Positions 22,402-27,712 of a DNA stretch of 64,000 nucleotides are shown one piece after another. The stretch comes from Candidatus Multivoradales bacterium (GTDB lineage: Bacteria > Acidobacteriota > Thermoanaerobaculia > Multivoradales > J023). The stretch lies in the NCBI GenBank assembly GCA_965248925.1, contig CBDFLE010000005.1, forward strand, positions 800,001-864,000. Direction: 5' to 3'. Position numbers and translations under genes: made by a program. The stretch's first letter is position 1; each line of letters opens with the position of its first letter. A model generated the notes under the pieces. It did not search any database. It was not told the origin of the DNA and saw nothing but the letters and a program-made list of their open reading frames with translations.

Positions 22402-23082
22402 TCACTGAGCCGCCAGCAGTAGCTGGCTAGCGGCGGGGTGGTTGCCTCGGCGAGAAAAATCGATCGCTAGACGCCCATCCTCAGCGGCCAGAGCAGGTGA
22501 CGCACCTCGCTCCAGAAGGAGTTTCACCAGTTCTGTCTTGCCGCCCGCCGCTGCTTGATGCAGCGGCGAGATGCCTCCATGTTGTTGGCAATTTGGCGTC
22601 GCACCCGCATCCAACAGCAAGCGAGCGGTCTCGAGCCCGGAAGCAATTTCTGCGTTGGCTGCAGCGCTGTGAAGAGGCCGCACCTGCATCGGGTTTTGGG
22701 AGGGTCGGTCGACATCGGCCCCATTCTTCAGCAGCAGCTTGGCTGCCGCCGGCCGGCCGAAGAAGGCTGCAAGCCCAAGCGCCGAGAAGCCATCCGCAGA
22801 CAGCGCGTTGGCCAGATCAGGCGACGCTTCCAAGCAGTCGCCTAGGGCCGCGACGTGGCCTAATGCCGCCAGCTCGAAGATATCGAGAGGACGCTCGCAG
22901 GCAGCCAGTAGTTGCTCGGCCAGGGAAGTCTTCTGGTGGTAGAGCGCTAGCAAGATCAGGGACACGCCGGAGGCGTCGCGGGCACCGGCGAGTGTTTTGG
23001 AGTCTTGCAGCAGCTGATCGAGAGCCGGCGAATCGCCGTCACCAATCGCCCGCTTGGCAGCTGAGACATCATCTTCGCTCAC
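22402..23082 (-). CDS. Ankyrin repeat protein
   Basis: Repeated G.s/pLH.AA..G...v.LLL..GA units. Confidence 0.92.
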   Translation of the reverse strand: MSEDDVSAAKRAIGDGDSPALDQLLQDSKTLAGARDASGVSLILLALYHQKTSLAEQLLAACERPLDIFELAALGHVAALGDCLEASPDLANALSADGFSALGLAAFFGRPAAAKLLLKNGADVDRPSQNPMQVRPLHSAAANAEIASGLETARLLLDAGATPNCQQHGGISPLHQAAAGGKTELVKLLLERGASPALAAEDGRLAIDFSRRGNHPAASQLLLAAQ

Positions 23083-23123
23083 GGCTGGATCCTCCTATTT
23101 GATTAGTAGCACTGAAGATTATA

Positions 23124-23142
23124 TAGTTAGGTAGTCTAACTA
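23124..23142. promoter_or_regulatory. Probable MarR operator
   Basis: TAGTTAG-N5-CTAACTA inverted repeat in AT-rich divergent intergenic region. Confidence 0.7.
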
Positions 23143-23154
23143 AACAAGTTTCAA

Positions 23155-23649
23155 ATGAACCTAGACAGAGAACACCCAGCCATGGACGCAGCCAATCCCC
23201 CTGACCTCGGTGACCAGGTCGACCTCTTCGAGCTTGCCGATCGCTTACACAGCGCGGCCATTGATCTGCTGCGCCGAGTGCGGCGAGACGATCCCGTCAC
23301 AGGACTCAGCTCGGCTCGTTTGTCCGCATTGTCGGTGATGGTGATCGCAGGGCCGCTGACTCTCGGTGAGCTAGCCCGGGCCGAGCAGGTTAGCTCCCCC
23401 ACCATCACCGGTCTGGTGAGAGGTCTGGAGAATCAGGGACTGGCGCGGCGGCGGCGGGACCCTGAGGATCGGCGAGTCTTTCGCATGAGCGCCACCGCGG
23501 CCGGCATCGAGTTGCTGCGTGCGGCTCGCCAGCGTCGACTGCAGCACCTGGCCAGCGAGTTGGCGCAGCGAACTGGAGAGCAGCGCAAGATCCTCAGCGA
23601 CGCTGCCAGCCTGCTGCTCGACGGCACCCTCGCCTCGCCATCGAAGTGA
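23155..23649 (+). CDS. MarR family transcriptional regulator
   Basis: LTLGELARAEQVSSPTIT.LV..LE..GL..R..DPEDRR. Confidence 0.93.
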   Translation: MNLDREHPAMDAANPPDLGDQVDLFELADRLHSAAIDLLRRVRRDDPVTGLSSARLSALSVMVIAGPLTLGELARAEQVSSPTITGLVRGLENQGLARRRRDPEDRRVFRMSATAAGIELLRAARQRRLQHLASELAQRTGEQRKILSDAASLLLDGTLASPSK

Positions 23650-23687
23650 CGTGAACTCGGCGCTGGACTGCGCCGTCCAAGGATCTT

Positions 23688-25091
23688 CTAGCGGCGAAAC
23701 TTGGCAAGCTCTTCGATCAGCGGCTGACTGGCTAGATCGTCACTCAAGATCGCCACGAAAGGCTCGATCTCCCGATGCTGTATTTGAGTCGAGAGTTTCC
23801 AATAGAGGATACCCTGCAGAAGATTCGGGAATTCCTGCTGGCTGATTTGGCGCAAGGCAGCAATGGCATGCCAGCGCTCGGTGGGCTCCAGGGGCTGATT
23901 CTGCCAGACGATCAAGCGCTTCTCCGCCGCCAGCGGCTCTTCTCCCTCGGCAACAGCATCAGGCTCACCCCAGACGACGGTGAAGTTGTCACCCGCCCAC
24001 GGCGCCAAGGTGCTGTCGCGGCGTTCGGTGTAGCCCAGCTCGGTGAAGATCACCGGCATCTCGGCGATCCCTTCGCTGGCGCGGAAACTGTCGATTCCAG
24101 CCATTACTTCGCGCCAGCCTTGTTGCAACAGTGCTGGTAGCTGGTCCCGTTGGCTTTCGTCCAAGAAGCGCTTGCGCAGCGGGAAGTAGGCATTGATGCC
24201 TATCAGGTCGAGCTGCTCCCAGAAGCCAACTTGGTGGTACTGGTCGAAGTTGGCGGCGTAGGTGAGCTTGCCGGAGTAGACCTCGCGGGTGCTCTCGATC
24301 AACCACAGCCAGCATTCCTCGAGCAAGGCGCGGCGGCGGTTGATCCGTTGCAGGTGATCCTCGCCGCTGTAGGCGGTCATCTGCCCCGCCCAGCTCTCGA
24401 AGGTCTCGACCTTGGCGGCCAGGAAGTCGCCGACCGATTCGCTCTCCTCGGCAGTGCCATCAAGGCGGGCGCCAGCGGCGATGCCGGCCAGCACGTCCTG
24501 CTTGAACTCCGTCTGCTTCTCCGCATTGAGGTAGTACTCCTCGAGCACCGGGATCTCCTCGATCGGAATCGTCGAGGCCAAGGCGTTCATCTCGCTCGCG
24601 ATGCCCAACACGTCCACTCCCTCTGCCTCGGCGACTCGAGCCCACTGCTGGACGAAGCTGGTGTAACGCATGAACCAGCCGCGTATCTGCTCCTCGGTGC
24701 CGGGCATGATCATGCCGTGCCACAGATGGCTATTCGCCAGGTAAGTGTGATCCAGTGCCACCCGCAGGATCAGCACCACCTTGAGTCCGGCCTTTTTCGC
24801 CTGACGAATCTCATGCAGCACCCACTTACTGTCGGCATCGAACCACAGGTGGTCGGTGTTCCAATTGCCCTGGTGGGCGTAGACCGTGGCGGACACGGTA
24901 TTCATCCCCGCCGCCCGCAGGCTGGCCATCCACTGTGGGTGATCGGGCTCATTGACCTGAATACCGCCGAGGTAGAAAGAATCGTCGAGGGCAGGGGGCG
25001 CCACCGCTGCCGGTGCACCGCCACAGGCGCCGAGCCAAAGAAGAATGACGCCGGTCAAGACGGTCAAGCTGAGGGATGATCGTTGGTGCAA
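23688..25091 (-). CDS. Lipoprotein, GH113-like TIM-barrel glycoside hydrolase
   Basis: Lipobox LGAC; GIASEM (acid/base), Y.GKLTYAANFD, FW..LD.IGINAYFPL, FTELGY (nucleophile). Confidence 0.75.
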   Translation of the reverse strand: MHQRSSLSLTVLTGVILLWLGACGGAPAAVAPPALDDSFYLGGIQVNEPDHPQWMASLRAAGMNTVSATVYAHQGNWNTDHLWFDADSKWVLHEIRQAKKAGLKVVLILRVALDHTYLANSHLWHGMIMPGTEEQIRGWFMRYTSFVQQWARVAEAEGVDVLGIASEMNALASTIPIEEIPVLEEYYLNAEKQTEFKQDVLAGIAAGARLDGTAEESESVGDFLAAKVETFESWAGQMTAYSGEDHLQRINRRRALLEECWLWLIESTREVYSGKLTYAANFDQYHQVGFWEQLDLIGINAYFPLRKRFLDESQRDQLPALLQQGWREVMAGIDSFRASEGIAEMPVIFTELGYTERRDSTLAPWAGDNFTVVWGEPDAVAEGEEPLAAEKRLIVWQNQPLEPTERWHAIAALRQISQQEFPNLLQGILYWKLSTQIQHREIEPFVAILSDDLASQPLIEELAKFRR

Positions 25092-25210
25092 GGCTGCTGT
25101 CCTCCAGGCTGCCGGTCCATTCTGACGCTAGACAATAGCAGTCGAGGGAGCCGCTGGGGTGGCTGCCCTTGACCTGGCGACGGCGGATAATGCATGCTTC
25201 GCCCTCGGCG

Positions 25211-25362
25211 TTAGATCCACACGCCCAACCTCTCAGACCCTTCCTCAGCAAGGGTCCTCGCGGGGCAAAAGGAGGCATACTCCCGGATCTCCCGGATAGC
25301 TGCCGGATCGCTAACTCTTGCTAGGCCATCGATTTCGCTGCTGAGGAGCGTTAGCGTTGGCC
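25211..25362 (+). ncRNA. Candidate structured 5' leader RNA with loop-loop pseudoknot
   Basis: Stem gaccctt/aagggtc whose loop cctcagc is complementary to gctgagg inside stem cgctaac/gttagcg; closing ccaac/gttgg. Confidence 0.5.
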
Positions 25363-25381
25363 TGGAAACAGGAGTTTGCTG

Positions 25382-26065
25382 ATGCCGAAGGACAAAGACC
25401 TGAAACGCCTTGCCCGCCAGCGCATGGAGAAAACTGGCGAGTCCTACACCACCGCCCGAGTCCAACTACTCGCCAGGAAAAGCCTCGACGGCGAACGGCT
25501 AGGCGAAGCAGAGCTAGCTGAACTCGCTGGCATATCAACCGCCGCGGTCCAGCGGGCCACCCAGCATGATTGGGGCTGGTGGCTTGAGCACCTGAACGCC
25601 GCTACTTGCCGCCAGCAAGAGCACCGCGAGATCGCTCAGTACGTCGCTCGTGAGTTCGCCATCTCACCCTGGTGGGCGCAGACCTTGACGGTCGGCATTT
25701 ACCGCATTGTCGGCCTCCGAGAAATCGGCCAGCGCCGCGAAGGTAGCTACGAAGCCAGCAATAGCAGAACTCTGCCAGTGCCGATTGAAATTCTCTTTCG
25801 CGACTTCGACGACGAAGATATTCGTCGTCTCTGGCTGCCAAAGGTCGAGTGGCAGGTGCGAAAATCCACCACCAACCGCTCGATCCGCCTCGACTGGCCG
25901 GGTGGATGCCGGGTTGACCTCTGGTTCACCGCCAAAGGAGATGCCAAGAGTAGCGTGCAGATTCAGCATCGCAAGCTGCCGGCGAAAGAAGAGGTCGTCA
26001 GGGTCAAAGGCGAATGGGCGCAGCGACTCGCAGCGCTGACCCGGTATCTGGACGGATCAAGCTGA
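25382..26065 (+). CDS. Hypothetical protein: basic N-terminal helix, DUF4287-like middle, SRPBCC-like C-terminus
   Basis: SD AGGAG; KDLKRLARQRMEKTGESYTTAR; WWAQTLTV; V..QH.KL....E......W..RL. Confidence 0.8.
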   Translation: MPKDKDLKRLARQRMEKTGESYTTARVQLLARKSLDGERLGEAELAELAGISTAAVQRATQHDWGWWLEHLNAATCRQQEHREIAQYVAREFAISPWWAQTLTVGIYRIVGLREIGQRREGSYEASNSRTLPVPIEILFRDFDDEDIRRLWLPKVEWQVRKSTTNRSIRLDWPGGCRVDLWFTAKGDAKSSVQIQHRKLPAKEEVVRVKGEWAQRLAALTRYLDGSS

Positions 26066-26488
26066 TCACACTGTCCGCGAAGTTCGGTAGACCGTGCCGC
26101 GAAACAGGGCGACGGTACTACCGGACTGGTTTTCCACCGCCACATCCCAGGTACCCAGCCTATGCCCAAGGGTGCGGGGTTCGGCGGTGGCGGTGAGCCG
26201 ATCGCCGGTGGTCACCTTTTCGGCATAGACGATGCTGTTCTCGGTACTGACACTGAGCCGGCCGCGGCTGTTCGAGGCAAAGGCGAAAGCGCTGTCAGCG
26301 AAGGCGAAGGTTACGCCGCCGTGGCAGATGCCAAAGCCGTTACACATTTCCTCGCGCACAGTCATCCGCAGGGTGCAGCGATCTCGTTCCACCTGCAGCA
26401 GCTCGATCCCCAACCAGCGGCTGAAGGCATCGTTGGCCAACATCTTGGCGACGCTGGCCTCGGCAACCTGCTGTGCGTTCTCAGGCAT
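26066..26488 (-). CDS. paaI: PaaI-family hotdog thioesterase
   Basis: NGFGICHGG..F.FADSAFAFASNS, VALFRGTVY. Confidence 0.9.
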   Translation of the reverse strand: MPENAQQVAEASVAKMLANDAFSRWLGIELLQVERDRCTLRMTVREEMCNGFGICHGGVTFAFADSAFAFASNSRGRLSVSTENSIVYAEKVTTGDRLTATAEPRTLGHRLGTWDVAVENQSGSTVALFRGTVYRTSRTV

Positions 26489-26542
26489 CGCTTAGCCGGT
26501 CGGTCGCAGCGAGATAGCTCCGCGGCGGCGCCGGCCAGGCCA

Positions 26543-27712
26543 TCAGGAGCCGACTTCGCTGGTGATTCCGGCAGCATCGCGCAAGGCTGCGACTTTGTCA
26601 GTTTTTTCCCAGGTAAATCCGTCCTCGTCGCGGCCAAAGTGGCCATAGGCGGCGGTGCGCTGGAAGCGCGGCAGGCGTAGTTCCAAGTGTTCGATGATGC
26701 CCCGTGGAGTGAGCGGGAAGTGCTCGCGAATCAGCACTTCGATACGCCGGTCGTCGATCCGGCTGGTGCCCTGAGTCTCGACATGCACCGACACCGGGTC
26801 GACAACACCGATGGCGTAGGCCAGCTGCACGGTAGCGCGTTCGGCGAGGTCGGCGGCTACCACGTTCTTGGCGATGTAGCGGGCCATGTAACTGGCTGAG
26901 CGATCGACCTTGGTGGAGTCTTTGCCCGAAAAAGCACCGCCGCCATGGGGGGCACTGCCGCCATAGGTGTCGACGATGATCTTGCGACCGGTCAAGCCGC
27001 AATCACCCTCTGGACCACCGGTCACGAAACGGCCAGTAGGGTTGACGTGGAAGATGGTCTGCTGGTCGATCAGACCGCCGGCCAGGGTCGGGCGGATTAT
27101 CTTCTCGATCACCTGCCGTTCTATCTCATCCTGGCTCGCCTCGGGCCCGTGCTGGGTGGAAATCACCACCGTATGCACCCTCTTTGGCTGGTGGCCAGCG
27201 TACTCGACGGTGACCTGGCTTTTGCCGTCGGGCCGCAGCCAGCCGATCTCACCGCTCTTGCGAGCAGCGGCCAAGCGACGGGTCAAACGCTGCGCCAAGG
27301 TAATCGGCAACGGCATTAGCTCGTCGGTCTCGCGGCAAGCATAGCCAAACATCAACCCCTGGTCGCCAGCGCCACCCGGATCCACCCCTTGGGCGATGTC
27401 GGGAGACTGTGGATCGATGGTCGACAGCACGGCACAGCTCTTGCCATCGAGGCCGAAGGCGGAATCCGTGTAGCCGATCTCACAGGCCGTTCGCCGCACC
27501 ACTTTGGAGAAATCTATATACCCCTGGGTGCTGATTTCGCCAGCCAGCAACACCATGCCGGTGGTGACTAGAGTCTCGCAGGCGACGCGGCTGTTGGGGT
27601 CTTGGCGCAGGGCCTCGTCGAGTACCGCATCGGAGATTTGGTCGGCAATCTTGTCGGGATGACCCTCGGTGACCGACTCGGAAGTGAACAGATGAGTGTT
27701 GCTATCGGACAT
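26543..27712 (-). CDS. metK: S-adenosylmethionine synthetase
   Basis: [42 protein letters not shown]. Confidence 0.99.

Follow-up and report, generated by a model that had tools for sequence, protein, structure and literature searches.

In the leader of rpsO, the gene of ribosomal protein S15, an RNA structure overlapping the ribosome-binding site is stabilised by the S15 protein itself, giving feedback on translation; this structure is a pseudoknot in E. coli and a three-way junction in other bacteria. In phage lambda, an N-terminal arginine-rich peptide of the N protein binds the boxB RNA hairpin; N is a single dedicated protein that works in transcription antitermination. The ZTP (pfl) riboswitch is built of two subdomains with a variable linker and a long-range pairing beside the expression platform.

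We analyzed a leader RNA of about 175 nt located upstream of the gene 25382-26065 in the window (the whole 64,000-nt stretch of DNA under study). The leader consists of a 5' three-way junction (P1, P1a/P2 and P3) followed by a long 3' hairpin that pairs with the Shine-Dalgarno (SD) sequence. The P2 loop kisses the top loop of the 3' hairpin, and the whole leader is thereby one compact fold over the ribosome-binding site. This arrangement shares with riboswitches in general a conserved, folded 5'-UTR domain whose expression platform is located at the ribosome-binding site, and with autogenous leaders a structure that overlaps the SD and the start of its own gene. The original prediction for this locus proposed that the RNA and the N-terminal peptide encoded directly behind it form one portable unit, and their co-occurrence in both directions (39 of 40, 77 of 80 and 27 of 27 loci in three surveys) bears this out.

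Layout of the leader RNA and its gene

The features of the locus are listed below. R1 denotes a covariance model of the 5' domain (78 positions, 21 pairs) and R2 a broader model; A9 and A10 are alignments of 40 full-length and 49 diverse leaders, respectively.

25169-25198, plus strand: promoter-like candidate site, TTGACC (25169-74), 18-nt spacer, CATGCT (25193-98)
25207-25210, plus strand: GGCG, directly 5' of P1, conserved in the upstream flanks of related loci
25212-25291, plus strand: 5' domain, three-way junction (R1 match, 86.5 bits)
25214-18/25285-89, plus strand: P1, covaries in 3-4 of 5 pairs
25222-28, plus strand: junction strand CGCCCAA, nearly invariant among relatives
25229-32/25262-65, plus strand: P1a
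25236-42/25250-56, plus strand: P2 (loop 25243-49), covaries in 7 of 7 pairs of A9
25243-25249, plus strand: P2 loop CCTCAGC, 5' partner of the kissing loop
25266-70, plus strand: junction strand CAAAA (CAAA(A)G in relatives), nearly invariant
25271-74/25280-83, plus strand: P3
25292-25306, plus strand: small hairpin CCGG/CCGG (25292-95/25303-06), an insertion seen in the window and locus L132 only
25314-25375, plus strand: P4, long SD-pairing hairpin from minimum-energy folds (25314-20 with 25369-75, 25321-27 with 25359-65)
25336-25350, plus strand: P5, apical hairpin CGCT/AGCG, covaries in 4 of 4 pairs of A9
25340-46, plus strand: 7-nt P5 loop GCTGAGG, 3' partner of the kissing loop
25370-25374, plus strand: Shine-Dalgarno sequence AGGAG, 7 nt upstream of the ATG
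25382-26065, plus strand: whole gene, 227 aa (module, linker, DUF4287-like helical domain, SRPBCC/Aha1-like domain)
25382-25483, plus strand: N-terminal module, 34 residues (helix 3-18, turn TGE, helix 22-35)

The promoter at 25169-25198 is assigned as a candidate site, because a consensus scan detected no sigma-70 site there; the TTGAC element stands 39-44 nt ahead of the model match in 44 of 131 related loci. From the position of TTGACC and CATGCT, transcription is predicted to start near 25205, at the conserved GGCG, which probably marks where the transcript begins. GGCG and its complement CGCC are both almost invariant and so offer no variation for covariation testing.

Two elements of the original prediction are part of the conserved structure: the hairpin gaccctt/aagggtc with its loop cctcagc is P2, conserved and covarying among relatives, and the predicted loop complement gctgagg is the P5 loop. 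Its remaining helices do not exceed chance or are particular to this window. The strings of the stem cgctaac (25309-15)/gttagcg (25350-56) and of the closure ccaac (25225-29)/gttgg (25356-60) are present in the window, but neither helix has a counterpart in relatives such as L132, and both are incompatible with the conserved SD-pairing helix 25314-27/25359-75. The CCGGA-rich stem placed between them is present, but as the small hairpin confined to the window and L132. Likewise, the 9-bp helix tcctcagca (25242-50)/tgctgagga (25339-47) can be drawn; it is the loop-loop pairing plus closing pairs, and only the extension is not conserved.

Two sequence peculiarities are located in the same region. 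At 25283-25309 the motif CCGGAT(C) occurs three times within 27 nt; the first copy is the 3' strand of P1, and the third is a potential register-shifted partner of the same 5' strand. The triple repeat was seen only in the window, with a weaker form in L132. In P3 (25271-25283, and in relatives) an SD-like GGAGG or GGGGG follows CAAA and is paired with CCUCC or CUCCC, and this helix looks like an internal SD/anti-SD pairing.

Conservation and covariation of the leader structure

Taken alone, the fold of the window sequence 25211-25400 is only modestly unusual (z -2.12, with 5 of 200 shuffles folding equally well), and by our estimate a 7-nt complement within about 130 nt would be expected about 0.01 times by chance. 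The comparison of relatives is decisive. The window protein has 1118 database relatives at E<=1e-3 and is present in 14 of 41 related genomes, and the 300 nt upstream of the relatives' genes are strikingly similar. Within these regions the P2 hairpin loop and its downstream complement co-vary, for example as cctcagc/gctgagg, ccccagc/gctgggg and gccgtcgc/gcgacgg.

A perfect Watson-Crick complement of at least 7 nt to the P2 loop, delimited from the model alignment alone, was found in 126 of 140 leaders, and in nearly all 140 it is positioned 29-40 nt upstream of the start codon. The loop partners comprise at least 12 distinct compensating 7-mer pairs, and most of the weaker cases are off by a single G-U pair, mismatch or bulge. 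A control by cross-pairing of leaders is uninformative here, as the loop class CCCCAGC dominates (93 of 140) and shares 6-7-mers with its variants.

The two upstream alignments, A9 and A10, both support a conserved, covarying structure. In A9, 89.4% of cells are paired, compared with 43-53% when the partners are slid by 1-3 columns, and 31 pairs changed on both sides (12-19 when slid). The corresponding values in A10 are 87.2% versus 36-57%, and 25 pairs versus 12-20. None of 500 shuffles reached the observed values in either alignment. Changes on both sides affect five of the seven kissing-loop pairs in A10, in which MAFFT offset some actinobacterial rows by one column so that these rows count as unpaired. 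The counterparts of the P4 helices also covary in relatives (A9, helices 7-9).

The 3' domain is more stable than its shuffles (mean z -2.8; below -2 in 102 of 138 leaders), and opening the SD of the window leader by force costs 11.7 kcal/mol. In minimum-energy folds, 84 of 138 leaders have 75% or more of the SD paired and 34 have it paired completely, and in 10 it is largely open; in many leaders the pairing of the SD is only partial. We also looked for an alternative conformation in which the anti-SD strand pairs with the 5' domain; the mean z was -0.37, with 10 of 130 leaders below -2. The switch envisaged in the original prediction is left unsupported, and we set a classical two-state mechanism aside for want of a conserved alternative pairing.

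We also scanned the locus with Rfam 15, a check attached to the original prediction. The search with all 4227 models at E<=10 gave four matches in the window interval 24800-25700, with E-values of 1.7-4.6 and scores far under the gathering thresholds, and seven diverse related loci had no match at E<=1.

The N-terminal module and its bodies

The product of the ORF 25382-26065 begins MPKDKDLKRLARQRMEKTGESYTTAR. An AlphaFold2 model of this protein (P0001) comprises two helices (3-18 and 22-35), a low-confidence linker, a helical domain and an alpha/beta domain. The invariant residues of the module are K8, R12, T18, G19, E20, Y22 and A25, and R14 is found in 138 of 139 module sequences. Since the invariant residues are encoded by 2-5 synonymous codons each, selection on the module acts on the protein and not on mRNA pairing.

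A Pfam search with the module produced noise only, in at most 2 of 36 members, and a PDB profile search gave no match at E<=10. An ESM Atlas search for look-alikes of residues 1-36 reached a top score of 0.75 and was uninformative. As the module has no Pfam or PDB relative, its basic composition is the one feature of the peptide itself that points to RNA binding.

P0001 itself matched neither Pfam at E<=1 nor NCBIfam. Its relatives carry PF14117 (DUF4287) and PF08327 (AHSA1), and the alpha/beta domain of the model resembles the Aha1 domain 8es5_A (E 1.4e-5, target-normalised TM 0.61). The body is thus DUF4287/SRPBCC-like by its relatives and modelled fold, as had been predicted. The expectation that the module occurs on varied C-terminal domains was likewise confirmed: among the bodies found behind both RNA and module are DUF4287 with AHSA1 or Polyketide_cyc2 (SRPBCC), BtrH_N with DUF4872, DUF1835 and CN_hydrolase, which are mutually unrelated. 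Further bodies among database representatives, known as proteins only, are DnaJ, Clp_N and GerE. A shared pathway that would point to a ligand, as with riboswitches in general, is not found among these unrelated bodies.

Taxonomic distribution of the RNA and the module

In the window's own 7.98-Mb genome, R1 gave one strong match, that at 25212-25291; this single copy speaks against a repeat or mobile element, a reading that we rejected. A chance match of 17 bits in the same genome is located upstream of an ORF that is presumably RNase PH-like, judging by its translation. Of 151 genomes sampled from this order, 37 contain R1 matches, almost always a single one. A loose DNA pattern scan of species genomes was also tried and returned chiefly chance matches, with 5 of 80 screened loci real by R1. 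Copies confirmed by R1 are found in a Gemmatimonadaceae MAG, Actinoplanes, an Actinomycetes MAG, Nonomuraea basaltis and a Solirubrobacteraceae MAG.

A profile of the module detected 3975 clusters (50% identity) at E<=1e-3 in 1.84 billion representatives. The module begins at residue 1 in most of the best 150 of these 3975 clusters, and offsets of roughly 20-100 residues are probably due to ORF calls extended upstream through an open leader. Named records are from Acidobacteriota, Gemmatimonadota, Actinomycetota (Actinoplanes, Nonomuraea, Solirubrobacteraceae) and other MAGs. None of the plasmids in PLSDB encodes the module, which likewise speaks against a mobile element.

Co-occurrence of the RNA and the module

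By following the RNA to the module and the module to the RNA, we found that each occurs in the sequences surveyed only with the other, barring broken genes and weak matches. Starting from the RNA, 40 of the 44 R1 matches score at least 25.9 bits, and in 39 of these 40 the module begins right at the start codon; the invariant KTG lies 16 residues past the start in every case. The four weakest matches (16.6-22.8 bits) lack the module, and the three of them that were inspected sit within other genes. The remaining strong match, L152 (G120:C1, 624763-624839, minus strand; 76.8 bits), has an intact leader in front of a broken gene. In L152 the module ends after KKTGEA, where a deletion and a frameshift lead into the middle of the body with loss of a stretch that includes the DUF4287 region.

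A phylum-level scan with R2 found matches in 10 of 151 genomes. Seven of the nine new matches examined, with one unpublished genome left out, are followed by the module; the other two are a deletion remnant and a weak 27.8-bit match without it. In one locus, L290 (G510:C14:18820-18893), the leader is cut short, and its 5' part (46 bits) is followed directly by the final ~35 codons of an SRPBCC body. An internal deletion has apparently taken out the 3' domain together with the module and the greater part of the gene.

In the opposite direction, the RNA was found at all seven module genes in five genomes of other phyla; one of the seven copies is divergent, yet its loop pair still matches. Among metagenome loci picked by the peptide alone, the RNA is present at 77 of 80, a sample less varied than its size suggests because 75 of the 80 share the body type of the window. 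The three exceptions are a locus with no upstream DNA, a palindromic misassembly and an N-containing locus with the 3' domain only. The second of these (L224) is a hairpin-type misassembly, in which the DNA upstream exactly repeats the coding start in reverse complement; in the third (L179) the sequence contains Ns, and the 5' domain is missing while the 3' domain is kept.

In Actinomycetota, the module is present in 43 of 301 genomes with 1-4 copies each (a tally that includes 8 unpublished genomes), and R2 detected the RNA at 27 of 27 loci, namely all 25 published ones and two further copies. In the sample of 151 genomes of the order, 44 possess the module, and no module locus lacks the RNA as judged by R1, R2 or inspection; these loci include one truncated by a contig end and one with just 17 bits. 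Three genomes of this sample have only weak RNA matches (22-24 bits) and no module.

The RNA element is always in the orientation of the gene and at a fixed distance from the start codon. Its adjacency to the module is not absolute, because in L013 (G015:C210, 188-466) an upstream ORF of 35 codons stands between them. In this locus the canonical start behind the leader opens the 35-codon ORF, which lacks the module and whose TGA overlaps the ATG of the module gene (ATGA); the overlap suggests translational coupling, and it is the sole such case seen.

A conserved neighboring gene was sought across 94 loci and none was found, and the unit is thus self-contained. The neighbors in the window (22402-27712) are what we take to be a MarR-like regulator (23155-23649, plus strand), a lipoprotein-like ORF of 467 aa divergent from the leader (23688-25091, minus strand), a PaaI-type thioesterase-like ORF (26066-26488, minus strand) and MetK (26543-27712, minus strand). 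None of them is kept beside the cassette elsewhere in the 94 loci.

Proposed mechanism and alternative explanations

Given that a compact fold at the ribosome-binding site and a basic N-terminal peptide always co-occur, autogenous control is the simplest reading. We propose, with even confidence for and against, that the promoter, the leader and the first 34 codons form a self-contained cassette that controls translation through binding of the module to its own leader. Indirect support for such binding comes from the obligate co-occurrence and from the conserved basic residues K8, R12 and R14. The basic two-helix module would recognize the leader probably at the invariant junction strands CGCCCAA and CAAAG, and when bound it would stabilise the docked, SD-closed form, resulting in negative feedback on translation. 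The feedback may act in cis, on the same mRNA molecule, since the module exits the ribosome first and the leader adjoins it on the same mRNA. The N-terminal position of the module could be explained by recombination, since at no other position would one event carry the RNA and the peptide-coding part along together.

A bolder version of autogenous control can be offered tentatively, at clearly lower confidence. The nascent module would fold on leaving the ribosome and clamp the leader of the mRNA being translated, limiting each message to a set number of translation rounds. The cassette of promoter, leader and tag, moved before unrelated genes in at least three phyla, would then be a general, gene-independent dosage controller, a kind not known to have been described in bacteria.

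An alternative of the same tentative standing is that the leader senses a global signal (a small molecule, an ion or temperature) as a riboswitch does, that the module is an independent tag for degradation or localisation, and that the two travel together as one useful expression cassette. The leader is indeed built like an aptamer, with a multi-stem junction, near-invariant unpaired nucleotides, tertiary docking and an SD-pairing helix, and the module matches no RNA-binding family. However, the regulated bodies have no pathway in common, and the mutually exclusive alternative pairing was not found. A lone sensor or a lone tag would also be expected sometimes, whereas these were seen only as broken genes and weak matches of 22-28 bits.

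We regard it as rather improbable that the module mainly binds the ribosome or a different cellular RNA and thereby anchors varied enzymes to it, and that the leader mimics this target. Ribosomal-protein leaders are established to work so, P3 pairs an SD-like GGAGG with a CCUCC-like sequence in a manner that recalls SD/anti-SD pairing, and the bodies include the chaperone-related domains DnaJ and Clp_N and the Aha1 fold. At the sequence level, however, short-word BLAST with the leader as query yielded only chance words in its own genome, and the module matches no ribosomal-protein family. Finally, two-helix basic modules can bind DNA and a promoter-like site lies just upstream, but the idea that the module represses its own promoter from a DNA operator in the conserved leader sequence is very improbable, as an operator does not predict compensatory changes that keep pairing in six helices and the loop-loop contact, or an element that keeps the gene orientation and a fixed distance from the start codon.

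The RNA described here is a widespread structured element outside Rfam 15, and it is unusual for an RNA motif to be defined by an obligate link to an N-terminal peptide and not by a pathway. Should the proposed binding of the module to its leader be true, the two would constitute a natural modular RNA-peptide pair. Autogenous control would then account for the regulation of hundreds of 'hypothetical' SRPBCC, BtrH-like and DUF1835 genes, and the cassette could serve elsewhere as a compact part for controlling expression. Designs for mutational tests are ready-made in the compensating loop pairs.

Comparison with known systems

No description of the RNA or the peptide was found in the openly accessible literature searched, which included PMC6429828. 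As far as this literature shows, an autogenous leader is a known kind of control, and a portable leader-plus-tag on unrelated enzymes has not been described.

A paper on rpsO in mycobacteria is PMC8470358. With the S15 rpsO leader the cassette shares a leader structure overlapping the ribosome-binding site, and binding by the encoded protein is presumed for the cassette. They differ in that the presumed binder here is a 34-residue tag on unrelated enzymes and not a ribosomal protein, and the cassette leader matches no Rfam leader. Like lambda N, the cassette combines a short basic N-terminal peptide with an RNA element encoded near its own gene, again with presumed binding. However, its RNA is a 175-nt multi-helix fold over the SD, its peptide is found on many bodies, and there is no sequence relation between the module and N. 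The resemblance to the ZTP (pfl) riboswitch lies in two linked subdomains held by long-range pairing near the expression platform, whereas the cassette has no Rfam match and its gene association leads to a peptide and not to a metabolic pathway. Finally, the body of the window protein has the same architecture as proteins with DUF4287 (PF14117) and SRPBCC/AHSA1 (PF08327) domains; the N-terminal module and the leader are additions to this architecture, and they are found on other bodies too.
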